Positions 15,181 through 33,017 of a stretch of 64,000 nt of DNA are shown here, in pieces. Under the pieces are notes generated by a model. The model saw only the letters and a program-made list of their open reading frames with translations, was not told where the DNA came from and made no database searches. Origin of the DNA: a bacterium (GTDB lineage: Bacteria > Zhuqueibacterota > Zhuqueibacteria > Residuimicrobiales > Krinioviventaceae); the NCBI GenBank assembly GCA_963693055.1, contig OY843751.1, forward strand, positions 3,264,001 through 3,328,000. The letters are read 5' to 3'. Positions within the stretch are counted from its first letter, which is position 1; every line of letters begins with the position of its first letter. Made by a program: the position numbers and the translations under genes.

Positions 15181-17425
<2,245 letters not shown>

Positions 17426-18653: not shown

Positions 18654-19805
18654 ATGGGACCCAAATCAAAAAAAGAATATGCAGCCTCAATCAAAATGCG
18701 ATATCAAAAAGCAAGCAAAACAGAGAAACAAAAAATACTGGACGAGTTTTGTGCTGTATGCAAATACAATCGAAAATATGCTATTCGACTCCTCAATGCC
18801 AGGGAGCAATCAACAATCAATGTCACGTATAAAAAACGAGGGCGTAAAGTCAAATACTCTGATCCAGAAATCCTTAAAACACTAGTCTACTTGTGGAAAA
18901 AGACCAACCTTCCCTGTTCTAAAAATTTAAAAGCCATTATACCGATTTGGTTGCCTCATTATCCATTCCCTCTATCCGATAGTGTTAAAATCGATTTGTT
19001 ACAAATATCACCGGCAACCATTGATCGACTTATGAAGCCAAACCGTGCAAAATTTACCAAACAGGGACTGGCCACCACCAAACCAGGTTCAATCCTCAAA
19101 AAGCACATCCCTGTAAAAACCAATCAATGGGATGAGACAACGCCCGGTTATCTCGAAGCGGATACTGTTGCCCATTGCGGCACCTCAGTTGAAGGACAGT
19201 TTGTTTATACTGTCAACACTGTTGATATCGCAACCGGCTGGACCGAACAGCGCGCCATCTGGGGAAAAGGTGAGCGAGGCACATTGCAAGCAATTGATAA
19301 TATTGAGCATACCCTGCCATTTAAACTTCTCGGCTTTGATTGCGACAATGGCTCCGAATTCTTAAACTGGCATCTATACGGGCACTTTGTAAATAGAGAT
19401 AAACCAATCCGCTTTACAAGGTCCCGTGCTTACCAGAAAAATGACAATGCTCATATTGAAGAAAAAAACTGGACACATGTTCGGCAGTATTTAGGCTATG
19501 AGCGTTTTGATAAAATCGAGCTTGTTGATATGATGAACCAACTCTACACCACGGAATGGCGTTTGTATTTTAACTTTTTTATACCATCTGTTAAGCTGCT
19601 CGAAAAAAAACGCGTCGGATCAAAAATTATCAAAAAATATGACAAGCCCAAAACTCCTTACCAGCGGCTTGTTGAATCTGACTTTATTGATCAGAGTACC
19701 AAATCAAAATTAACCAAACAGTTTCACGCACTTGATCCATTCTTTTTGCAAAAAACTATGGTTGAAAAAATTAATCGTATTCAAAGAACAGCTTTACAAA
19801 AATAA
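18654..19805 (+). CDS. DDE integrase-core transposase
   Basis: EADTVAHCG, TVDIATGWT, DCDNGSEF and RSRAYQKNDNAHIEEKN; N-terminal HTH; uninterrupted. Confidence 0.92.
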   Translation: MGPKSKKEYAASIKMRYQKASKTEKQKILDEFCAVCKYNRKYAIRLLNAREQSTINVTYKKRGRKVKYSDPEILKTLVYLWKKTNLPCSKNLKAIIPIWLPHYPFPLSDSVKIDLLQISPATIDRLMKPNRAKFTKQGLATTKPGSILKKHIPVKTNQWDETTPGYLEADTVAHCGTSVEGQFVYTVNTVDIATGWTEQRAIWGKGERGTLQAIDNIEHTLPFKLLGFDCDNGSEFLNWHLYGHFVNRDKPIRFTRSRAYQKNDNAHIEEKNWTHVRQYLGYERFDKIELVDMMNQLYTTEWRLYFNFFIPSVKLLEKKRVGSKIIKKYDKPKTPYQRLVESDFIDQSTKSKLTKQFHALDPFFLQKTMVEKINRIQRTALQK

Positions 19806-20024: not shown

Positions 20025-21203
20025 TTAACTCACTTTTAATTGGGATTTTGCAAACTGCAATGCATCGTTTATCTTTGCAGAATCCGGTCCGCCGCCTTGA
20101 ACAAAATCTGCCGGACCTCCCCCCTTGCCGTTGATCATGGCAATGGATTCACGAAAAACCGAACGCAGATCCAGATCTTTTCGGCTGGTAGCAAACACAA
20201 GAGCAGGATTCTCACCTGTTGTTCCCAACAACAGCGTACCCTGAGCTTGTTTGATCACTGCACTGGCTATGCGTCTTAAAACATCAATCCTGACATCCGG
20301 GTAAATATAATCCACTATTGATTGATCATTCAACTTGGCACATAATTCTTGAATAACCGATTCTTCTTTTTCTTTGTCAATCTGCTGAATGCGTTTGAAA
20401 TAGAGTTTGTTCTCGTCTGCAATTTTTTCAATCTTGGCAGGTATATCTGCAAATCCGGTTGTTAACAGCTTGCCGCTTTCAGATAGAATGGTATGATATT
20501 CCTGAAACAGTCGTACTGTCCTGCCGCCGGCTGCAAAAGTAAAACGAAAGGTCCCTCTCACACGCTCTTTGTTCAAAATTTTAATCACACCTACTTCACC
20601 GGTTGATTTTACATGGGTGCCACCGCATGGGTCCAGATCAAAATCCTCAATCTCCACCAGGCGAACATTTTCATGGATGCCGGGGATCTTGCGTAAACCC
20701 GGATTTTCTAAATCCTTTTCAGTGGCAATAAACGCTTTAACAGATCGATTTTGCCAAATGATCTGATTGGCCAACAATTCAACGGCATTAAACTGATCAT
20801 CAGTAATGTCTTGTGCATCGGTTTCGATTGTAGAAAAATCCTCACCCAAATGCGAAGCAAGCGTCTCTACACCCAACTGGTGTTTAAAACTACCGGCAAG
20901 TATGTGGAAGCCCGTGTGCTGCTGCATAAATTCAAATCGTCGTGACCAATCTATCACTCCTGAAACAGTGCCCTCGGACTTTCCCGAGTCCAGAATATGC
21001 CAGATAGTATCATCCTCTATAATTACATCAGAAACTGTCAATTCACCCAATCTACCGGTATCATGCATCTGCCCACCGGAAGTGGGATAAAACAGGGTTT
21101 TGTCCAGTTGTATCGCGCTTTTCCCCTCAATCTCTTTAACATCCAAAACCTGTGCTTGAAATTCTGTTTGATAGCTGTCATGATAATAAAGTTTTTCAGT
21201 CAC
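20025..21203 (-). CDS. alaX: Alanyl-tRNA editing protein (AlaX-like) with C-terminal DHHA1 domain
   Basis: TEKLYYHDSY start at GTG 21203 (SD AAGGA); FYPTSGGQMHDTG, zinc ligands QQHTGFH and PCGGTH, and GKGGG. Confidence 0.88.
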   Translation of the reverse strand: MTEKLYYHDSYQTEFQAQVLDVKEIEGKSAIQLDKTLFYPTSGGQMHDTGRLGELTVSDVIIEDDTIWHILDSGKSEGTVSGVIDWSRRFEFMQQHTGFHILAGSFKHQLGVETLASHLGEDFSTIETDAQDITDDQFNAVELLANQIIWQNRSVKAFIATEKDLENPGLRKIPGIHENVRLVEIEDFDLDPCGGTHVKSTGEVGVIKILNKERVRGTFRFTFAAGGRTVRLFQEYHTILSESGKLLTTGFADIPAKIEKIADENKLYFKRIQQIDKEKEESVIQELCAKLNDQSIVDYIYPDVRIDVLRRIASAVIKQAQGTLLLGTTGENPALVFATSRKDLDLRSVFRESIAMINGKGGGPADFVQGGGPDSAKINDALQFAKSQLKVS

Positions 21204-22428
21204 GGTCGGTTCCTTTCTCTTTTTTGCCAAGCAATCTCTGCCTGCGGTGTTGCAGCTCTGGTGTGCATTCATGCATCAGTCCACGCAATTCTTCCAGCAC
21301 ACGAACACGTTCCATAGCGCGATCAACAATCTCCAGCGCTTTGATATAATCCTTTATCTGGTGTTCATAATATTTGGCCAATTCAATATAGGCAATGGGC
21401 AAAAATCGCGTTGATCGGGTAATAATCTCCAGCCACAGGGGTTCTGTTTTATCAAAATGCTTTAGACGTTTTAATATAAACGCTTGTTTTATCATCACAT
21501 CTACTGAATTATTTACTCCGGGCAAGGCATTTTGCTCACAAATGGATATTGCAAGGTCAAACAGTTCCAGATCTTCAAACGTTCGCACAACTCCCAATAT
21601 ATCATAACTGTCCACACCTGTGGGGGTCTGAAACGCTTTTGAAATAGCAACGGTAATTGTCACCATGGAGAGTATATCCATCACATTGTGTTTGAATACA
21701 GGAATGAGCGGCTCGTATTCTCCCTGCCGCAGATAATCAAAATAAATCATGGGGATTTCGTAACCCGGCACATCACCGTGGCGTTTGAATCCCAGCAAGT
21801 GTTGTTCAAGGTTTTGCAAGGTACAGGGAACCACCCGGTCCTTCCACAATCGCCGGGATGTGTGTAAAATATCCAGATGCAGATGGTTTTCCCAGGGCAC
21901 CGGTAATCGGTTTAAAATATATCGGGTTGTAAGTGTTGGCAAATCGTACGACTTGCCATTAAAACTGATAATACCATTCCGGCCCCGGAACAGTTGCGCT
22001 AGTCCCTGAAGCATGGCAGGCTCTTCGTGATAATCTCGCATAAAATATTGCTGTACCACATATTCATTGTTGTCAAAAAATCCCGCGCCAATCATAAAGG
22101 GATAGGTGCCAGTCCCTCCTGCGAGTCCTGTGGTTTCGGTATCTAAGAATATAATATTTTCCGGGGACATATCCCGCAAGTCATGGGTTTTGCCAGCATA
22201 TATGAAATCCATTGATCCGAGTTTTAAAAAATCTCCCAAAGCGCTGCCGTGCATGAAATCAAGGGGATAGCGTTTCTCTCTGAGGACAAATTCACCCAAT
22301 TCATTTTGAACAATGCTTGCACTCAACTCGGCAACAAGAGCATCCTTTTTCTCTGAACGGTCCGGTAACGGCGGTGTGACTGACACTGATTTCTGAATAC
22401 CGCGTAATTTATCCTTGATTGAGGCCAC
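21196..22428 (-). CDS. mrfB: RNase H-like (DEDDh) exonuclease YprB/MrfB with C-terminal TPR
   Basis: FLDTETTGLAGGTGT, SFNGKSYD, HLDILH, HNVMDILS and ELAKYYEH; directly downstream of a DUF1998 helicase. Confidence 0.85.
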   Translation of the reverse strand: MASIKDKLRGIQKSVSVTPPLPDRSEKKDALVAELSASIVQNELGEFVLREKRYPLDFMHGSALGDFLKLGSMDFIYAGKTHDLRDMSPENIIFLDTETTGLAGGTGTYPFMIGAGFFDNNEYVVQQYFMRDYHEEPAMLQGLAQLFRGRNGIISFNGKSYDLPTLTTRYILNRLPVPWENHLHLDILHTSRRLWKDRVVPCTLQNLEQHLLGFKRHGDVPGYEIPMIYFDYLRQGEYEPLIPVFKHNVMDILSMVTITVAISKAFQTPTGVDSYDILGVVRTFEDLELFDLAISICEQNALPGVNNSVDVMIKQAFILKRLKHFDKTEPLWLEIITRSTRFLPIAYIELAKYYEHQIKDYIKALEIVDRAMERVRVLEELRGLMHECTPELQHRRQRLLGKKEKGTDRD

Positions 22429-22439
22429 GTTGATCCCGC

Positions 22440-24752
22440 CTATTTCCCGGTTGTGCTCATATATTCAAACAGTTGAATGGACACAGCTTTTCCCTGATCT
22501 CCCACTTCAAGCACCGGCCCAACGCATGCAGGACATCCATTCTCGCATCCGCAATCATTAACCAGACCTATACAAGCTTTGGCAATTTCAGGATAAATGC
22601 TAAACAGCTTTTTGCTGAATCCAACCCCACCGGGATACTGGTCCCAAATAAACAGTGTCGGCTTTTGCCACAACGGCGCTCTGACCATTGGCATGGCGGC
22701 AAAGTCCCGGCGGTCTCCCATTACAAATAACGGCACCACATGGCTCAATACATTAGAAGCCGCTTTTAATCCGTCTCCCAACTGCTGTTTGTCAATTCCC
22801 AGTATTTCATGGACCTCTTCCGGGAAACCATACCAGAAGGCAGTTGTGTGCAGTTCCATTTCCGGTAAATCGATCTTGGCCCAGCCGATATTTTCATGTG
22901 TATTAAACTTGATTTTTTTATACATGGTCACCAGATTGGTTACCACAATCTCACCATAACCCAGCGATCGGGTATCGGTATGGTCTTCATCCGTAATCTC
23001 GATGACTTTGAGATCGCTTTTAAGCTGAGCGTCGGTATAATGATCAACCTTGACCTGATGAACGTATGCTTTGCGCCGTTCCCAATCGAGCTTGTCCACA
23101 TGGAACTGTTGTCCCTCATGGATATAAATGGCTTCGTCATGCACCATCATGGGGGCGGCAAACAGATCAATCTCGCCAATCACTTTTTCCTCGGGAGTGG
23201 TTTTGTCAATAATCACTACATTTTCTTCAGCAGCACTGCGTAGACTGATAGTCTCGGCAGGATACGTTTCTGCCATCCAGTGCCATCTGTCTCCGGCTTT
23301 GTGAATGACCCGTTCTTCTTCAAGGTATTCAAGAATTTCCTGTGTGCTGTCCAGTCCACCATTACCTTTCAGGTCTTCTCCAAATCGCTCGGATGTAGTA
23401 AAAGGCAGTTCAAATGCAGCACATTTGATATGACTGAGCAGAATCACCAGATTATCCGGATCAACAATGCCTGCTTCGGGAGATTTACTGAACAGGTATT
23501 CCGGATGGTTTACAATATACTGGTCCAATGGCGAAGAGGAGGCTATGAGAATCGCCAATGATGATCCACTGCGCCTGCCGGAGCGACCTGCCTGCTGCCA
23601 GGTACTGGCAATGGTGCCAGGGTATCCGGCCATGACGCACACTTGAAGTCTGCCAATATCGATACCCAATTCCAGCGCATTGGTACTCACAACGCCGGTA
23701 ATGCTGCCCGCGCGCAGCCCGCGTTCAATTTCACGTCTTTGCAAAGGAAGGTATCCACCACGATAACCGCGAATAGAGCTGGCAGATTTCTTTTGGTGGC
23801 GCATATGGTCTTTTAAATAAGTGAGCAGCAATTCCACATTCATACGGCTGCGCACAAATACAATGGTCTGCAGCATGTTTTCAATAAATCGCGACGCAAT
23901 ACGCTCGGTTTCCTTGATGTAAGACCGGCGAATACCCAGTTCACGATTAACAACAGGCGGATTATAAAGGATGAAATATTTTTCGCCCTGTGGAGCGCCA
24001 TTGTCATCTACCAGGTTCATAGGTTCGCCGGTGAGTTTTTGTGTCAATTCCACAGGATTTGCAATGGTAGCTGAACAGCAGATAAACACAGGATTGCTGT
24101 TATAAAACCGGCAAATGCGTTTGAGACGTCGCAGCACATTCCCCAAATGACTGCCAAATACTCCACGATAGTGATGGATTTCATCTATTACAATATATTG
24201 CAAATTTTCAAAAAGTTTAACCCAGGTCGTATGATGTGGTAATACACCCGCGTGCATCATATCCGGGTTGGTGACAACAATATGTCCCGAGCTTTTAATC
24301 GCTTTACGTGCAGATACCGGGGTATCTCCATCAAAAGTATAGCTTTTGATATCAAAATCAACAGTTTCACCAAGTAACTCTATAACCGAATGTAATTCCG
24401 AAAGCTGGTCCTGTGCAAGCGCTTTGGTCGGAAACAGATACAACGCCCGTGCCTCACGGGATTTGAGCACGGCATTAAGTACAGGTATATTATAACACAG
24501 GGTTTTGCCTGAAGCAGTAGGCGTAACAATGACCGTATTTTTACCATCCAATGCAGAACCTATAGCCTGTGCCTGGTGTGTATACAATTGCTTGATTCCG
24601 TGCTGCTGTAAAGCCGAAACAATGCGTGGATCCAGTGTATCCGGAAACGGTGCGTACCGTGCTTCCCGTTCTGGCAAATGCTTCCACAAAGTTGCATTGC
24701 TGTTAAATCCGGGATCACGTTTTAGAATATCAATTACCTGGTCAATTGTCAT
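22440..24752 (-). CDS. mrfA: DEAD/DEAH-box helicase YprA/MrfA (Hrq1-like) with DUF1998 domain
   Basis: TPTASGKT, DEIH, SAT, ALELGIDIG, QQAGRSGR and C-terminal CGCENGCPAC. Confidence 0.9.
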   Translation of the reverse strand: MTIDQVIDILKRDPGFNSNATLWKHLPEREARYAPFPDTLDPRIVSALQQHGIKQLYTHQAQAIGSALDGKNTVIVTPTASGKTLCYNIPVLNAVLKSREARALYLFPTKALAQDQLSELHSVIELLGETVDFDIKSYTFDGDTPVSARKAIKSSGHIVVTNPDMMHAGVLPHHTTWVKLFENLQYIVIDEIHHYRGVFGSHLGNVLRRLKRICRFYNSNPVFICCSATIANPVELTQKLTGEPMNLVDDNGAPQGEKYFILYNPPVVNRELGIRRSYIKETERIASRFIENMLQTIVFVRSRMNVELLLTYLKDHMRHQKKSASSIRGYRGGYLPLQRREIERGLRAGSITGVVSTNALELGIDIGRLQVCVMAGYPGTIASTWQQAGRSGRRSGSSLAILIASSSPLDQYIVNHPEYLFSKSPEAGIVDPDNLVILLSHIKCAAFELPFTTSERFGEDLKGNGGLDSTQEILEYLEEERVIHKAGDRWHWMAETYPAETISLRSAAEENVVIIDKTTPEEKVIGEIDLFAAPMMVHDEAIYIHEGQQFHVDKLDWERRKAYVHQVKVDHYTDAQLKSDLKVIEITDEDHTDTRSLGYGEIVVTNLVTMYKKIKFNTHENIGWAKIDLPEMELHTTAFWYGFPEEVHEILGIDKQQLGDGLKAASNVLSHVVPLFVMGDRRDFAAMPMVRAPLWQKPTLFIWDQYPGGVGFSKKLFSIYPEIAKACIGLVNDCGCENGCPACVGPVLEVGDQGKAVSIQLFEYMSTTGK

Positions 24753-24763
24753 AATCTATTTTC

Positions 24764-27103
24764 CTAATTACGAATAATCTCAACAGTACCGGTTTCACCG
24801 TTTATTTCAATCAAATCACCATTTTTAATAAGCTGGGTAGCACTGGCAATTCCCGTTACTGTTGCCAGGCCAAATTCTCGCGCAACTATAGATGCATGAG
24901 AAAGTACGCCTCCGGTTTCCAGCACCATTCCCGAGATGTACGAAAACACCGGTGACCATGCAGGATCCGCAGAATGAGCAACCAATATCTCATCATCGCC
25001 AATCTGTCTGGCCTGGTCCAGAGTACGGGCAACAAACGCTCTGCCTCTGCTGATTCCGCGGCTGACGCCAAATCCCTGCAATCGTTCAAAATCATGCGAT
25101 ACATGGGATTCGGGAAGGGTTTGAGATCCTTGCAGCAGGGATTGATACGCCTGCTTTCTGGACAGAATTTGCTCGTAAGGGATTTTAGAATCAATAAAAG
25201 AATGAATCAATTCAATACGATCCATAAAAAAAACATCATCAGCATGAACAAGCTTGCCAGTTTTGTATAAGAGATTACCATATTCAATTACTACATCCCG
25301 CATTCCAGACAAGATTTTGTGCCACTCGTTGCGCTGGTTTTCGCGAAGCAGGGTAAATTCTCGGGCGTATTTTAATAAGAGGAAAAATAAGCCCTTCAAC
25401 AAAGGACGAATAAATAGGGGCAGATTATTAATTTGCTGAATACAGTTCTGTTCTGCCTGGTTACTACGATTCAATAAATCCGTACGATTATTGGCAAACT
25501 TTTCACCGCCATTATTATTCTTGATCAATATCTCTGGCATATCTTTCCAAACCGGTTGAAAAATATCCAGGCTTTCCGAACGGTGTCCATACAAATCATG
25601 AAAGATCTTGATATCAGCATCTGTTACAATGGCAAGCATAGCACGGTTGGCTTTGACGGTCTCATTCTCTTCAAATCCGGTTAACAAATCCGTCAAAGTT
25701 TCATTGATCTGTTTAATTTTACAGATCTGGAGGCATTTCTTTAACAAGGCATAAAATATATCAGCAAAGGTAATACTCCATCGATGGAGTGATAAAAACT
25801 TGTCTGTGAGTCTTTCCGTTTCCTCAAAAACAGAATACAATTTATCCGGTTGAGACAATTGGGTTTTCAATACCGTCAGCTTTTCTTTGTTTAGATTGGA
25901 AAATTGCCTCCATTTCATCAAATTCACACCGGGTATCCAGTTATAGTCACCGGCAAAGATCAATTGAAACAGATAACGGAAACCACGCCAACTGTTTCTC
26001 AACCAGACATTTCGGTGTCCCAATAACAGTGACGCCTGTTTATCAAGCGAGATAAATTGCAGTGGAATAACTGAATATAGACTCTGAAATACGGATATAC
26101 GGGTAAATGGAAAACCTTTAAACAACCGGGTGATATTTTCGGATGCAGCCAACTTACTATAACCCAATCCCTTCAGGGGATCACGATATGCGTTCTTTTC
26201 CATCCATTTCTGTAAAATGGACCAGCCAAGTGGCGACAGCGGTTTTGTAAAACGCTCTGCAAAAAAGTAATCGGTCCAGATACCACCCTCTTTATCAACG
26301 CGTATGCGCTGTCTGCTGACACTGCTGGTAACGGGACGTGACTGCAAAATCCATACTTTATTGTTCTCGATCGCCCATTCAATATCCTGATTGGCTCCCA
26401 ATATAGATTCTATTTCGAGTCCCAGTTCAAGCAGTGATTTCAGCTGATCTGCAAATCTGGATTGTTGTGACAAGGTTTGCCATAATCCGGTATTACCCGT
26501 AACAGATTTTACCGTTAACCCATTTCGGTTAATGGATATCCGGACCGGGTCCTCTTCACCAGACACCAAGCCTTCACCATATCCCTGAACGATTTCAAGT
26601 AACAACGTATCCGGGTCACCGGTAACCGGATGCCGGGTAAAAAAAACTCCCGCAAAATCAGGATTAATCATTTGCTGCAGCATAACAGCCATGACGGCAT
26701 GCTTATCAGAAAATCCAAATTGTTCCAGATAAGTAGATACATGTGGGGATTCCAGAGATTTCCAGCAATCAGATATCGCATTTACCAGATTTTCCACACC
26801 GGAAACATTTAAAAACGTTTCAAACTGACCGGCCATAGAAAAGGAAGCATGGTCTTCAAATGGAGCCGAAGAACGTACAGCATATTTATTATGGGAATTC
26901 AAGTTGGTTAACGAGTCGAGTTGTCTTTGCAGCTTGAGAGGTTTATTTCTGTATTTTTTAAAAGCACAAGTAGTTACAACATAAAATTCAGGAACAGGTA
27001 TACCCATTTCAGAAAGTATAGATAACCTGCCGGCTTTGGCACCGGTCAGGTTAATATTGGATGCACATGCAGCATCCTTATGTAAAATAGCGTTTATCTT
27101 CAT
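24764..27103 (-). CDS. PEP-utilizing/ATP-grasp kinase of rifampin phosphotransferase/PigC-like architecture
   Basis: GAKA, AVRSSAPFED..SMAGQFETFL and DIEWAI..ILQSRPVT (PPDK_N); helical middle domain; C-terminal swivel GGVLSHASIVAREFG; no pyruvate-binding barrel. Confidence 0.85.
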   Translation of the reverse strand: MKINAILHKDAACASNINLTGAKAGRLSILSEMGIPVPEFYVVTTCAFKKYRNKPLKLQRQLDSLTNLNSHNKYAVRSSAPFEDHASFSMAGQFETFLNVSGVENLVNAISDCWKSLESPHVSTYLEQFGFSDKHAVMAVMLQQMINPDFAGVFFTRHPVTGDPDTLLLEIVQGYGEGLVSGEEDPVRISINRNGLTVKSVTGNTGLWQTLSQQSRFADQLKSLLELGLEIESILGANQDIEWAIENNKVWILQSRPVTSSVSRQRIRVDKEGGIWTDYFFAERFTKPLSPLGWSILQKWMEKNAYRDPLKGLGYSKLAASENITRLFKGFPFTRISVFQSLYSVIPLQFISLDKQASLLLGHRNVWLRNSWRGFRYLFQLIFAGDYNWIPGVNLMKWRQFSNLNKEKLTVLKTQLSQPDKLYSVFEETERLTDKFLSLHRWSITFADIFYALLKKCLQICKIKQINETLTDLLTGFEENETVKANRAMLAIVTDADIKIFHDLYGHRSESLDIFQPVWKDMPEILIKNNNGGEKFANNRTDLLNRSNQAEQNCIQQINNLPLFIRPLLKGLFFLLLKYAREFTLLRENQRNEWHKILSGMRDVVIEYGNLLYKTGKLVHADDVFFMDRIELIHSFIDSKIPYEQILSRKQAYQSLLQGSQTLPESHVSHDFERLQGFGVSRGISRGRAFVARTLDQARQIGDDEILVAHSADPAWSPVFSYISGMVLETGGVLSHASIVAREFGLATVTGIASATQLIKNGDLIEINGETGTVEIIRN

Positions 27104-27116
27104 TCATGTGTCTTGA

Positions 27117-28115
27117 TCAATTCCGGCTTTTTAATTTAACGCTGTTTATTTGATCTAGCTGTAATTTTTCTAATTCTTTGTCAAAATTATCCAGTAATTT
27201 CAACATTTCAAGATCATCTACCATATCTTCTTTTAACGGTAGCTTTTCGCTATTATGATCGAGTATATTCTTTTTACTATCCAATGTCACCGTAAGAATG
27301 CTGCCATACTTGCCCATACTTACAGAAGAGGCTACTATTGCGTCAAATTTATCACGCGGGTTAACAAGATAATATTGCCCGCCCATAATCGCGATATCGA
27401 TATCAGGAACCGTTTCCAAAATATCTTTTAATTTTTTATAATTGCCATTATACAACAATACAACCAGATCCGCCTTTTTATTGACCTTGGGCACCAATTC
27501 TTTTGCTACTTCAATCGGATCTTTGCAATACAGCATGGGCTCTTTTAATCGTTTTGAAAAGAGCATACCTCTGTCATCACATAAACCAATTATGCCCAAA
27601 GAAATAGATTTGAATGGCAATCCATTCTCATCCTTTGCCTTGACAATTTGAATTTGAAAAGGCTCGGTAAATGGTTTATCCGTATCCTGATAAAATGTAT
27701 TGGATGCAAGAAAATTGACATCATTTTCTTTTGCAAGTGTTTTCAAGATCTCACCACCGTTTATAAATTCACGGTGGGCCAGATTTATATTCTTGTATCC
27801 AAAGCCGGACATGGCATGGATAAGATAATCCGTATATAACTGGCTAATCTGATTTGCACCACGACTAAAGCCGCCGGCATCCAGAAAAACATTGAAATTG
27901 TTTTCATTTATATGATCGTTGATAAAAGTAGCCCGCCGGGCTACTCCGCCGTAGCGTGCAGTCTTTCACCCACAGGGGCGAACATAACCCATCAGATCAT
28001 TTGTATGAAATATGCTCAGAGTAGCAGTTGCTGTTGAATCTACTGCTTCAGAAGTACGTCCACAACCTAAAACCAGTATTGCAATAGATACAACAAATTT
28101 CATCATAGTTTTCAT
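27117..28115 (-). CDS. UshA-like (5'-nucleotidase fold) lipoprotein selenoprotein, 332 aa, Sec at codon 50
   Basis: ATG 28115: MKTMMKFVVSIAILVLGC (lipobox)...IFHTNDLMGYVRPCG-TGA(27968-27966)-KTARYGGVARRATF...FLDAGGF, continuing in frame into the track ORF 27117..27812. Confidence 0.85.
27925..27968 (-). promoter_or_regulatory. Candidate bacterial SECIS element
   Basis: TGA followed by the hairpin AGTAGCCC-GGC-GGGCTACT, whose G-starting loop lies 28 nt after the UGA. Confidence 0.7.
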
Positions 28116-28174: not shown

Positions 28175-28199
28175 GAATTCATTAGCAAGAATTATATAC

Positions 28200-28225
28200 A
28201 AGCAGGGTCCCCTGTTACCCTGCTT
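28200..28225 (-). terminator. Hairpin after PorV-OmpA gene
   Basis: AAGCAGGGT-N8-ACCCTGCTT inverted repeat; poor U-tract. Confidence 0.5.
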
Positions 28226-28238
28226 GATTAATATTCAA

Positions 28239-30059
28239 TTAATTTCGTTTTATAAATATAAAATTTTCCAGAGCTTGAATTTCTACGTTAACGGGACCTG
28301 TTAAATCCAATACTATTCGGGTAAATGGTCCATCGGGATGGAATCCCAACCGGGCACGTATAAAGGGTCCACGATTCAAGGGAATTTCCTTAATGTCTGA
28401 AAGCATATAAACATTGGGTACATCAATAATTAACCGTTCAGGTGAACTAAATGTACGGCTGGTAAATTCTACTTTGCCATTAAAGATTATTTGAATTACC
28501 TGATCGTTAATGGCTTTGACTGTAATCAATGCAGAGCCATTGGGCATTTCGGGTTTTGAATTATTTGTAAACAATTCAAATTCAACACGTCGGTTACGTT
28601 CTCTTCCCTCTTCAGTCGAATTGGGCGCTACGGGTCGCATTTCACCATATCCAATGGGCATGTAGAATTTCTTGTCAGTAAAATGTTTGGTTTCTTTGAG
28701 ATAATTGATCACACTGGTTATACGTTTTTGAGACAGGCGAATATTATACCAATCGGTACCGATACTGTCAGTATGTCCGGAGACATGTACAACTGAATTG
28801 GGATAATTTGCCAGAATGTCTCCCACCTTATTTACAGTGGACTCGTCCGAATCACGAATGTCTGATTTGTCAAAATCAAAGTTGATACGCATACTTACCA
28901 GAATCTTGTTATCTGTTTTTTGCTCGACTTCAATCTTGCCATCACTGTCAGCGGCAATCTGCTGTGCGCGGGCCAAACGACGGGACATTTCATCTTTCAT
29001 TTTATCCAGTTCCATTCGGGACTGACGTGCAGCTTCCAGTTCACGCTGCAGTAATTCATCATAATTATTTTCTTGTTTTTTCCCAACACCAAAATTCAAA
29101 AGAATAGAAAAACGATGGATATCTGCCTCAAGAGCATCTACCGGAGAATAAGCATAATCGATACGTGTTTCTGAATTGGCCAGCCATTCCATAGGAATAT
29201 TTAAACCAAAACCCGCGGATATAGGAGAAGCCGCAACATCATGCAATTGATACCCGGCACGCAAAAATAATAAATCCGACAATATAATTTCACTACCCAT
29301 ATAATAGCGCAGGTTTTCTTTGAGTGTCCAGGCAACATCACCAGCAAAATTTATATTCAAAGACTCTGATTTACCCAGAGTATAACCGGCGCCTAAACGA
29401 AATGTTGTGGGTAAAGGTGAAGACATGTCTCTGAATTTGGCTTTGGTAAGACCAATATTCTGAATGGTTCCACCAAACATAATATCATAAAGTGTAAACT
29501 GGGTGCCCACATCAACTGCAAGAGCCGAGCTCTGTTCACCGGCAAGAGTCTGGCGTAAAAATTTGACATCCGCACCAACACCAAACACATAATCCCACAA
29601 ACCCAGACGAGTACCAAAACCCAGTGAGGCAAGGATATCATCACCTGTTGCGGTTCCACCGGTTTCTCTGAAATTAACATCCATTTCAGTAATAGAACCT
29701 TCATTAAAATAGGTCAAATCCATTCCTATTACACCGTAACGCATGGGAAATGCAAATGCAAAAGAACCCTGCTGTGTATCATCAATCCAGTTATGAAAGT
29801 TCATAGAAAGCATTTCATTAGATAATTGACCCAAGCCACCAATATTGTAACGCATTAGATTCACATCATCTGCAAATGCAGTAAAGGCTTCACCCATAGC
29901 TACTTGTCGGGCAGCCGGGCTGATCTTGAGAAACGGAGCTCCATGATAGCCTATTCCGGAATTAGATGCGCTAATAGCAGTTTGAGCAAGAAATGATATG
30001 AATACACAAATATGAATGAATATGTGTTTTAAATATTTTTTTTGAAATATGGTTTTCAT
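28239..30059 (-). CDS. PorV/PorQ-family beta-barrel fused to OmpA-like peptidoglycan-binding and AMIN domains
   Basis: GAPFLKISPAARQVAMGEAFTAFADD (PorV/UPF0164), IDYAY..HRFS, coiled coil, INFDFDKS..GHTDSIG..NRRVEF (OmpA), PERLIIDV..RIVLDL (AMIN). Confidence 0.85.
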   Translation of the reverse strand: MKTIFQKKYLKHIFIHICVFISFLAQTAISASNSGIGYHGAPFLKISPAARQVAMGEAFTAFADDVNLMRYNIGGLGQLSNEMLSMNFHNWIDDTQQGSFAFAFPMRYGVIGMDLTYFNEGSITEMDVNFRETGGTATGDDILASLGFGTRLGLWDYVFGVGADVKFLRQTLAGEQSSALAVDVGTQFTLYDIMFGGTIQNIGLTKAKFRDMSSPLPTTFRLGAGYTLGKSESLNINFAGDVAWTLKENLRYYMGSEIILSDLLFLRAGYQLHDVAASPISAGFGLNIPMEWLANSETRIDYAYSPVDALEADIHRFSILLNFGVGKKQENNYDELLQRELEAARQSRMELDKMKDEMSRRLARAQQIAADSDGKIEVEQKTDNKILVSMRINFDFDKSDIRDSDESTVNKVGDILANYPNSVVHVSGHTDSIGTDWYNIRLSQKRITSVINYLKETKHFTDKKFYMPIGYGEMRPVAPNSTEEGRERNRRVEFELFTNNSKPEMPNGSALITVKAINDQVIQIIFNGKVEFTSRTFSSPERLIIDVPNVYMLSDIKEIPLNRGPFIRARLGFHPDGPFTRIVLDLTGPVNVEIQALENFIFIKRN

Positions 30060-30104
30060 TTGATCTCCAATACCGTTAAATCTCTATTCGCAATATTCAT
30101 CTAA

Positions 30105-33017
30105 TTATCGAACAACCATGAACTTGCGAAATATAGCGATTTGTTCGGATTGACCGGATTCATCGGTTATCAAGTCTGCGTGTACTTTGAGCCAATACGT
30201 ACCGCTGCTTACTTTGTGACCGCTGTCATTATATAAATCCCACCAGTAATCTACAACACCGTATTTTTCTTTGGGTACAGTACTTCCCGTATCAAAAGAG
30301 AGTGAATTTCCATCAATTTCTTTAACTTTTTCACCGGCAAGTGAATATACCTCTACTTTGCGTACAATCAAAGAACCCGTTGCAGAAGCGACACGCATAC
30401 GAAAATTTGTAGCCGAGTATTCAAAATATGGATTAGGAGCCACTTCAACAACATAAGGCTCTCCACCCAAATCAATCAATACATTGGGTTCGCTCGGCAC
30501 CAGAACTGACCGTGTTAATATCACATTATCAATATATTCTGCCTGTATGCTTCCACCAAAAGAACTTTGCAGTATACCGTCATTAATATCAATACCATTG
30601 GTATTGTCAGTAATAAGAATGCCCTCTCGGTTGATAAAATTACCTGTATTATAGATTCCCTGATTATCCGGAATCTCATACAGGTAAATATCTTCCCGGT
30701 CGAGAGCTGTATTTTTCAACGTAACCTCTAAAGAATCCTGGGTGATGGGATTCAGGTTTTTGTCCATTTCATCGGTAATCCTCACAAAGATAACCTGATC
30801 AAATTCCACCTGACTTAGAGAAACACCCTGATTGTTTTCAATTGTCATATTACCATTTGTTGCCAAAACAACCAATACAGAATCCATCGAGACATCTGTC
30901 ATATCATTAACATCCTGATATATTACCGCAAGTGTATCTCTGTCTACAACCTCGAGTGTATCATTCCCGGGTGTAAATGTTGAAGAAATGATTATAGGAA
31001 TTCCTTCACTGTTTTGAAAAAAAGATTGTTTCAAGTCCAAAGTAACCATTTCCGAATCGCCACTTATACAGGCAGTTACCGGCACATCAAAACTCTGACG
31101 AATGGATTCAAGATTATTATCATCAAGTCTGATAAGTGCCTGATCCATGGTTTGATCATCATCAGGCTCAGTATTTGATGCTAAATAGCCATATGTTTTT
31201 TCGCCTTCAGTGTCAACAAAACGAATAGAAGATGTTGTTGCCTGCACTTCTTCATACACCAGTTTCCACCGAACCAGTGCAGGAGTAATCGCAGAATTCT
31301 TTGTACTGGGATACGCATTCAGATTAATTGAAGTAATCCCCAAAAGCGCGGGTATATTTTCAAGATTTACTGTATTGACACTCTCATCTGTATTCGCAGA
31401 AAACTCGTAAAGTGTGCGGTATGGAGATGTATTTTCAATAATTCTGAACAACAGATCAATAGCACTTCGTTGTACTGCATTATCCGGCAAATCCAGTTCA
31501 CATTCAAAAGTTTTCCAGTTTGGGATCAAAGAGTCGGCATCAGAAACACCAATTGTAGATGCCCAAAAATATGGCTTTGGAGTTACATTCACATTGGTAT
31601 CATAATAATGATATTTCACTGACACACCTTTTAATACAGGTGTATCTTTTGGAGTATCCGTTTGCAGAAAAGCACGGTATTGATATACACTATGTGCTTT
31701 ATGTTTATCTAAAAACAAACGCATACCTGAACTTGTATAAGTTGTAGTGCTGTCTCCACTGGGTCCAATCCAGTCTTGTCTCTGGATATGGTTTACATCC
31801 GTGCCTGATCTGAATTGCATTTCAAGTGAAGTATTGTCACCTGAATTGGTTTCTGCATCCCAAAAGAGTGAGTCAAAATTCACATCTTTATCCAGAACAT
31901 ATAGATCAGATTCTCGCCAGCCGCTTTCAAAACCTATACGAGCAGGAATGATCTTGTTTGCATCATCATCTCGATGCACAATTAAAAGTTTTTCAGAATC
32001 GGAAGATTGTGAACCAATCTGGTCAACATCTTTGAGGGCTTGTAATTCAAGCTTTAATTCCCAAAAATAATCAGTGTTTTGTGGATCAACTTCAACAATC
32101 CGGTTATTACCCGCATCTGCAATCAATACATGGCCATTTTCAATCATATCCGCATCAACAGGATTCAACAAACCATATGTTGCATCGTCGGCCATAGCTT
32201 CTGATGGATACTGCCAAACAATCTCTTTGGACGCTCGGGAAACCAGTAACACACGATTATGCCCCTGGTCTGTGATCAAAACAAGATCCTGATCGCCCTG
32301 AATATATTCAATATCTACCGGAGAACTGAGAACCGCTGAACCCAATTCCCATACAATACTCTTGTTACTTTTTTCAACAATAATTACCCGGTCATTACCA
32401 CGATCAGCAATGAGGAACTCTGTACTATCATCAATTTTCACAGCATCCGCAGGATTAGATAACTGGTTAGGGCCGTTACCTTCAAGACCATTGGGATCAC
32501 CATAATCCCAATCAATAGATTGTGTTTCTCGTCCAATTTGTAATACACGGTGACTGCCTCTGTCAGTAATCAAAACACGGTATTGTTCATTTTCCAAAAA
32601 CTCGAATGCATCAACAGGTAGTACTAGCTCTCCACCGGTATACTCCCAGGTAATCCTTTTCGTTACAGGATTATAAATAAACACTTTGGAACCGCTGCGC
32701 AAGGGATCAGTGACCAGATAAAGATCCTGGTCATCTATTGTTCGCACATCTATATCTTCAACCGCGCCCAAAGGAATCGTTTCATCCGGCCAGGTCCAGT
32801 CAAAACCGCCCAGGGTAAAATTTTCCAACTGGATATCATTACCATCCTCTTCCCATATGGGAGTTAATGTAATTAATGAATCTTTTTGGACACCTTGCTG
32901 CACGATTGTTTTTGGAAATGGTGCGGAATCCTGCCAGGTTATTTCCTTTTGCGCAAAAATTTTGCCTGTAACTGTAGTAAACAAAAAAATAGCAATATAC
33001 AGATAATATTTTTTCAT
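30105..33017 (-). CDS. Large secreted beta-propeller (NHL/ASST-like repeats) surface protein with T9SS/FlgD-type C-terminal domain
   Basis: Signal peptide; repeats NPADA..LIADRGNDRV and NPVDAD..LIADAGNNRIVEV; tail APNPY..YSLAGEKV..WDLYNDSGHKVSSGTY. Confidence 0.75.
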   Translation of the reverse strand: MKKYYLYIAIFLFTTVTGKIFAQKEITWQDSAPFPKTIVQQGVQKDSLITLTPIWEEDGNDIQLENFTLGGFDWTWPDETIPLGAVEDIDVRTIDDQDLYLVTDPLRSGSKVFIYNPVTKRITWEYTGGELVLPVDAFEFLENEQYRVLITDRGSHRVLQIGRETQSIDWDYGDPNGLEGNGPNQLSNPADAVKIDDSTEFLIADRGNDRVIIVEKSNKSIVWELGSAVLSSPVDIEYIQGDQDLVLITDQGHNRVLLVSRASKEIVWQYPSEAMADDATYGLLNPVDADMIENGHVLIADAGNNRIVEVDPQNTDYFWELKLELQALKDVDQIGSQSSDSEKLLIVHRDDDANKIIPARIGFESGWRESDLYVLDKDVNFDSLFWDAETNSGDNTSLEMQFRSGTDVNHIQRQDWIGPSGDSTTTYTSSGMRLFLDKHKAHSVYQYRAFLQTDTPKDTPVLKGVSVKYHYYDTNVNVTPKPYFWASTIGVSDADSLIPNWKTFECELDLPDNAVQRSAIDLLFRIIENTSPYRTLYEFSANTDESVNTVNLENIPALLGITSINLNAYPSTKNSAITPALVRWKLVYEEVQATTSSIRFVDTEGEKTYGYLASNTEPDDDQTMDQALIRLDDNNLESIRQSFDVPVTACISGDSEMVTLDLKQSFFQNSEGIPIIISSTFTPGNDTLEVVDRDTLAVIYQDVNDMTDVSMDSVLVVLATNGNMTIENNQGVSLSQVEFDQVIFVRITDEMDKNLNPITQDSLEVTLKNTALDREDIYLYEIPDNQGIYNTGNFINREGILITDNTNGIDINDGILQSSFGGSIQAEYIDNVILTRSVLVPSEPNVLIDLGGEPYVVEVAPNPYFEYSATNFRMRVASATGSLIVRKVEVYSLAGEKVKEIDGNSLSFDTGSTVPKEKYGVVDYWWDLYNDSGHKVSSGTYWLKVHADLITDESGQSEQIAIFRKFMVVR

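Follow-up and report, generated by a model that had tools for sequence, protein, structure and literature searches.

The gene described here lies within a window of 64,000 nucleotides, by which we mean the whole stretch of DNA that was analysed, and encodes a UshA-like protein of 332 aa when its single internal TGA is read through. The features of the locus are collected in Table 1. The TGA is codon 50 and stands in the context RPCG-U-KTARYGGVARR. A preliminary description of this DNA had proposed that the frame runs through the TGA from an ATG at 28115, and that the open reading frame at 27117..27812 is merely its 3' part. Translation bore this out, since the plain table-11 ORF comprises just the last 231 of the 332 residues. 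The frame closes with a stop at residue 333 and includes no CxxCH motif. Gene callers split it at the TGA, and the database entry for the gene is a truncated product. The assembled contigs of two runs, X1 and X3, were identical to the stretch and may be its own source. The lipobox VLGC, which had been noted upstream of the TGA, was read at residues 15–18 after a hydrophobic signal, with the Cys18 codon at 28064-28062; a loose form of the pattern is present in about half (16/29) of the orthologues from the same order. The protein is predicted from these signals to be exported and lipid-anchored. A promoter scan performed at chance level (6 found, 6.2 expected).

Table 1. Features of the UshA-like locus, in coordinates of the window
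Feature	Position	Strand	Basis
Whole gene, haem-less UshA-like CxU protein, 332 aa, Sec at residue 50	27117..28115	(-)	Translation, family model match, order-level loci
Signal peptide and lipobox VLG-C18 (predicted lipoprotein)	28062..28115	(-)	Sequence; N-terminal helix 2-18 in structure model
Cys48-Gly49-Sec50 motif, TGA 27968-27966	27966..27974	(-)	Sequence, orthologue alignment
Predicted bacterial SECIS hairpin, 8-bp stem, GGC triloop	27927..27945	(-)	Folding, covariation, genome-wide chance count
N-terminal fold of the 5'-nucleotidase/UshA type (metallophosphoesterase), about residues 31-315; of the dimetal site only Asp40 remains	27171..28025	(-)	Profile, model, Foldseek, alignment
Intergenic 10-bp inverted repeat, terminator-like, between upstream PorV/OmpA gene and UshA-like gene	28199..28226	(.)	Sequence; context only

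In 17-18 of the 21 order-level loci clustered, the gene is preceded by a PorV/OmpA gene and a gene for a protein with a secretion tail; in 13-15 of the 21 it is followed by genes for a PEP-utilising enzyme, a helicase and a nuclease-like protein. In the window, the upstream pair occupies 28239-33017 (-) and comprises a PorV-like/OmpA/AMIN fusion (NF033709, above its cut-off) together with a repeat protein of 970 aa that has a FlgD-Ig tail. The retention of this pair within the order suggests type IX-like secretion. Its association with the UshA-like gene is confined to the order; none of 40 class-level loci showed it. The downstream 779-aa protein with PPDK_N and PEP-utiliser domains (24764-27103, (-)) begins 14 nt past the UshA-like gene and adjoins it in 13/21 order-level loci; it resembles the models of PEP synthase, PigC/RedH and rifamycin phosphotransferase, all far below cut-off. 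Beyond it, tightly spaced on the same strand (20025-24752, (-)), lie a DEAD/DEAH-type helicase, an exonuclease-like and an alanyl-tRNA editing-like gene, which from their translations may be YprA, YprB and AlaX. By eye, a 383-aa ORF at 18654-19805 (+) resembles an insertion-sequence transposase, and a gene near it, at 15242-17425, resembles a catalase-peroxidase.

The preliminary description had read the gene as a selenoprotein and had expected the organism to encode selABCD. In the closed genome (100% complete), selA, selB and selD each exceeded their model cut-offs, and a tRNA with a TCA anticodon scored as tRNA-Sec (68 bits against a cut-off of 47). The same genome has a separate tRNA-Trp(CCA), and 1391 of its long ORFs end in TGA. 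Its selD carries a TGA of its own, and the 8-bp stem behind it, capped by a GGA triloop, is a hairpin of the same style as that of the UshA-like gene. To count the gene in other genomes, a profile was built from 29 order-level orthologues and applied at E<=1e-25; by this measure the gene is present in 39/43 genomes of the order and in 86/167 of the phylum, all but one of them in the same class. A TGA follows xCG in every one of the 30 best order-level loci, the window's own included. Weaker profile matches gave 40 further loci, of which one (G022) was mis-parsed and dropped; among the 39 counted, 37 have TGA, one TGC and one TGT (the Cys codons of G100 and G118), bringing the TGA loci to 67.

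Homologues with Cys at the TGA position, for which the preliminary description had suggested a search, were also frequent among database sequences. Among the 150 best of 1.8 billion database representatives, 75 have an intact CxC, 16 lack it, and 59 are without the N-terminal motif region altogether; the gene is shortened in databases, which is a matter for annotation. Both Cys columns are invariant across 77 Cys homologues, a set chosen for possessing these residues. Trp stands at the Sec position in three database homologues. The relative G100 (96% complete) gave no match to selA, selB or selD and no convincing tRNA-Sec, and its orthologue has TGC. Thus, where the Sec machinery was lost, the residue turned into Cys and not into something else. 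The pattern is not entirely clean: five drafts with TGA in the gene gave no selA match (G012, G103, G109, G110 and G133; 74-94% complete), and two of these, G012 and G110, do carry other Sec genes.

The perfect 8-bp hairpin reported just past the TGA was recovered as the stem AGTAGCCC/GGGCTACT closed by a GGC loop. It extends from +21 to +39, and the loop begins 29 nt past the TGA. According to PMC13188914, the bacterial SECIS model has a loop of 3-9 nt with G first, a stem of 4-16 bp and a loop located 16-37 nt past the TGA; the hairpin falls within all of these ranges. The stretch folds at -18 kcal/mol, with z = -2.2 to -2.7 relative to shuffled sequences, and as an estimate of chance a comparable hairpin follows only 6 of the 1391 long ORFs of this genome that stop at TGA. 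In the alignment of 30 sequences, 84.6% of alignment cells pair, compared with 30-43% in slid controls. One pair joins two synonymous third positions, and is U-A in 19 and C-G in 11 of the 30 sequences, never broken; over the 67 TGA loci it is T-A in 45, C-G in 18, T-G in 3 and mismatched in 1, counts that, coming from related sequences, do not represent independent events. Of the 67 TGA loci, 66 have a stem of 4 bp or more, and the Arg codon that forms the loop is CGG in 64 of the 67, against a usage of 12.7% in this genome. In G100, which has TGC and no selABD, no triloop hairpin was found; in G101, of the same family, the hairpin is intact. Judged by these alignments, the hairpin is under selection.

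A nonsense pseudogene, a sequencing error or a code in which TGA specifies Trp would each account for a frame that gene callers split, and Trp in three database homologues is in keeping with the last. Against them stand the TGA at the same codon in 30/30 and 37/39 loci, the covarying hairpin and the Sec machinery; a code with TGA as Trp is further opposed by the high-scoring tRNA-Sec, the separate tRNA-Trp(CCA) and the many long ORFs that stop at TGA. The preliminary description had reserved a nonsense pseudogene or sequencing error for a genome without Sec machinery whose homologues have neither Cys nor TGA; here the machinery is present, and both TGA and Cys are seen. We give these readings next to no credence and regard them as effectively refuted. 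In conclusion, the internal TGA almost certainly encodes selenocysteine, whose insertion is deduced from comparison of genomes.

Four other candidate selenoproteins were noted on contig C1 of the same genome. The TGA at 6394718 (-) belongs to a Sec peroxiredoxin, PrxU, with the motif PGDFTFV-U (NF040737, 367.7 bits, over cut-off). That at 1143314 (+) lies in GDAGEG-U-GGEVAP and marks a probable hidden multihaem lipoprotein selenoprotein, which has nine CxxCH motifs past the TGA and one before it, is located within a multihaem cluster and has no NCBIfam match at 1e-5. The TGA at 4811754 (-), in DTDC-U-SWW, interrupts a 275-aa exported protein with a secretion-type C-terminal tail; the coding score extends to both sides of the TGA and no selenoprotein model matched, so that the gene is a candidate CU selenoprotein or carries a nonsense change. 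The TGA at 5135530 (-), in GFG-U-GG, belongs to a HesB/IscA-like protein that matched Se-type HesB models below their cut-offs.

Next, we compared the protein with its closest family model. The best NCBIfam match was NF041198, UshA_like_PCGU (135.5 bits against a cut-off of 275, E 2e-39), over profile positions 3-296 of 519. In full-length homologues the last third of this model is a c554-like tetrahaem domain with four CxxCH motifs, and the protein falls under the cut-off because this C-terminal cytochrome is missing. Two full-length haem-bearing Cys homologues also fell under it, at 240 bits; thus the cut-off is strict. At its present level, NCBIfam misses the gene. The missing tetrahaem domain is an addition to the preliminary description and the feature that sets this protein apart. 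All 30 order-level proteins end 262-317 residues past Sec, without a tetrahaem domain, while among the 39 further loci the set of four haem motifs is present in 15 and lacking in 24. In one family, f9, the two forms are flanked by the same genes, and no cytochrome gene is left alongside the short forms. The trees of the shared domain, unrooted and obtained by quick searches, require 3-6 changes of state, and monophyly of the 11 haem-bearing rows was rejected (AU p 3e-59; LG+G4 on 35 of the 71 rows, excluding long branches). On these trees the haem state changed more than once, and we infer repeated loss of the haem module, with Sec and SECIS retained. Among the database representatives, short CxC proteins without haems number 31 and haem-bearing ones 35; by this count, haem-less forms are not peculiar to this lineage. 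Retention of the haem-less form in 39/43 genomes of the order suggests a use for the Sec domain even when no cytochrome is attached.

The best match in this genome to the lost domain (E 1.6e-12) is a stand-alone 184-aa tetrahaem c554-like gene (L009; C1:2680539-2681108, (-)), which is conserved and divergent from a gene with 20 haem motifs. The idea that it is the detached haem half of a split gene was rejected. It is present in 95/125 genomes of the class, haem-bearing ones included, and in 17/19 of family f15, where the UshA-like gene was not found, and it is missing from several short-form genomes (f6 0/4, f3 2/8). No split-off cytochrome partner was found for the haem-less form.

The fold of the protein is that of a nucleotidase from which most of the active site has disappeared. 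The structure model has a pLDDT of 91.8 overall and of 75-79 across the CGU loop region. Foldseek matched it to 5'-nucleotidases, CD73 and UshA among them, whose N-terminal domain has the same fold (TM about 0.7; lowest E 3e-20), and profile comparison to E. coli UshA gave E 6.5e-16. The degenerate motifs already noted (NDLMG, DAGG and AHRE) were confirmed: the metallophosphoesterase fold is present, the dimetal ligand set DxH, GD, GNH, H, HxH is not, and against the genome's own canonical nucleotidase seven of eight metal/catalytic positions are lost, Asp40 alone being kept. The ligand columns are conserved at 84-100% in 25 canonical domains, and vary in 82 CxC domains, where the His of DxH is present in 12% and the Asn and His of GNH fall outside the top three residues. 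The 5'-nucleotidase C-terminal domain (PF02872, 5_nucleotid_C), described earlier as missing, was absent from the Pfam scan of this protein, and was found in 0/77 CxC or CxxC homologues and in 12/12 canonical controls. Thus, the CxC/U motif and nucleotidase function are mutually exclusive in the sample examined. The earlier proposal that the protein is not a nucleotidase is supported by the loss of the metal ligands and of the substrate-binding domain.

Two readings start from this remodelled site. A remodelled hydrolase or transferase, SoxB-like or a phosphoesterase, could attack a sulfur or phosphate ester with Sec as its covalent nucleophile, and the shared fold, together with matches of the homologues to the SoxB model at scores far below its cut-off, is in keeping with this. 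SoxB and nucleotidases need a dimetal centre and a second domain, however, and both are absent here, so we consider such an enzyme improbable. Alternatively, Cys48, Sec50 and Asp40 could make up a new site for soft metals (Cu, Hg, Ni, As), which the protein would bind, reduce or deliver. The scaffold is that of a former metalloenzyme, Asp40 is invariant in the 29 order-level sequences, and Arg61, conserved in 78% of CxC homologues but not in canonical proteins, could suit an oxyanion. Yet Asp40 is conserved in only 39% of CxC homologues, no conserved extra His or Cys ligand was seen, and no metal-transport domain occurs among the 24 Pfam families matched by 77 homologues. Metal or metalloid handling therefore appears rather unlikely to us.

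We next examined the domains fused to homologues, 28 selected proteins being scanned singly and 77 as a set. Cytochrome c554 is fused in 36/77, and thioredoxin-fold domains in 11/77 (E<=1e-3; about 7 of the 11 would count at the stricter E of 1e-5 at which the small set of 12 canonical controls was scanned). The 11 comprise four TlpA/AhpC-type, five DsbA-type and two others, and eight of them have no haems; all come from distant homologues, none from this lineage. Two haem-less homologues, one of which is also counted among the 11, have CxxC domains and a membrane domain that weakly resembles the genome's CcdA-like protein (best E 2.7e-4) and gave no Pfam match. The non-redox partners among the 77 were DUF1573 in three and LysM in one. 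By this survey, fusion partners are mostly redox modules, and their two kinds suggest that a single catalytic CxU/CxC loop can draw electrons from either of two exchangeable sources.

The closed genome itself encodes DsbD and has 15 redoxin matches, with no match to DsbB, VKOR or Thioredoxin_4/DsbA-like domains; its detectable envelope thiol wiring is thus reductive. Across the phylum, DsbB was found in 1/167 and VKOR in 12/167 genomes, and most genomes have no recognised disulfide-forming oxidant. This scarcity raises the possibility that the protein serves oxidative folding: as a stand-in for DsbB, the CxU would draw electrons from protein thiols or DsbA-like domains and pass them to cytochromes, the short form working with a free cytochrome. 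The order CxC domain, DsbA-like domains, CxC domain, c554 in three homologues (P0033, P0044, P0081) would suit such a path, as would the 20 ORFs with three or more CxxCH motifs in this genome. The predicted complementary pattern with DsbB/VKOR was not seen, however: 10 of the 12 VKOR genomes also have the UshA-like gene, and families without the gene are mostly without DsbB and VKOR too. In addition, this genome has no DsbA-like match, and the stand-alone tetrahaem gene that best matches the lost domain fails to track the short form. We regard oxidative folding as unlikely, if the least unlikely of these alternatives.

The fusion partners and the genome's redox set favour a reductase over these readings. 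The preliminary description had envisaged a periplasm-facing redox or metal-handling protein; the cytochrome and thioredoxin fusions point to the redox half of that proposal, and metal handling is the less favoured half. In the mechanism that we propose, the Cys-Gly-Sec loop would be a redox centre on a nucleotidase fold stripped of its metal-binding residues. The selenolate would attack a periplasmic substrate at an oxidised sulfur or oxygen, candidates being a disulfide, a persulfide or polysulfide, or a peroxide. Cys48 would then resolve the adduct to leave a selenenylsulfide, whose reduction would be the task of a TlpA-type redoxin supplied by DsbD. Since the protein carries no haems, recharging by a DsbD/thioredoxin relay is likely; the fused tetrahaem domain would take over this role in relatives with haems. 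Against a reductase, the conserved neighbours in the 21 order-level and 39 class-level loci clustered include no redox gene and look like housekeeping genes; moreover, the thioredoxin fusions come from distant homologues, and a CxC/CxU pair can bind metals too. On balance, we give about even credence to a periplasmic CxU reductase recharged through DsbD and a TlpA-type thioredoxin.

A broader proposal, which we hold tentatively and at a little under even confidence, is that the dead-nucleotidase domain with its CxU acts by itself as a thiol/selenol oxidoreductase, one built on a phosphoesterase rather than a thioredoxin fold. It would accept interchangeable electron supplies, either a fused tetrahaem cytochrome or a thioredoxin/DsbD relay; with the haem repeatedly shed and Sec and SECIS kept, the short form would represent the minimal catalytic unit of the family. 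The haem-less form is also the easiest version to test, having one domain, no need of cytochrome maturation and natural Cys orthologues (G100, P0019).

The preliminary description had placed the protein among UshA-like CxU predicted selenoproteins of unknown function. This family is indeed catalogued: "UshA-like, COG0737, CxU" has been listed as a predicted selenoprotein family since an ocean survey of 2008 and recurs in later tables (PMC9312934, PMC13188914). In that survey it is among the more abundant marine selenoprotein families and one of the few major ones outside the class with Cys-based redox motifs (PMC2398784). The literature searched gave catalogue entries only; no functional study of the family was found in it, and the search found no paper joining nucleotidase, cytochrome c554 and selenocysteine.

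Compared with the calcineurin-like metallophosphoesterases UshA, CD73, CpdB and SoxB, the protein has the N-terminal fold in common but keeps only Asp40 of the eight positions and is without 5_nucleotid_C. A multihaem selenoenzyme of Geobacter, MccSep/ExtKL, offers a functional analogy, and no more than that, for the haem-bearing relatives, which speaks for the reductase: there, a haem-fed Sec/Cys pair reduces polysulfide, so that periplasmic Sec and Cys chemistry acts on chalcogen-chalcogen bonds, but the fold is unrelated and the active site there includes a Cys-ligated haem, whereas there is no haem here (PMC13510729). The short model NF049981, "UshA-like (seleno)protein family 2" (262 positions), matches weakly over the Sec region (28.9 bits against a cut-off of 140), and its motif is CxxU, as listed in PMC13188914, rather than CxU. 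With NF041198, "UshA-like (seleno)protein", the protein shares PCG-U, the export signal and the degenerate UshA N-terminal domain; the tetrahaem c554-like tail of that model is absent here and in all 30 best order-level loci. The UshA-like CxU family was already known, and this case is set apart by a haem-less form at the same locus as its haem-bearing orthologues.
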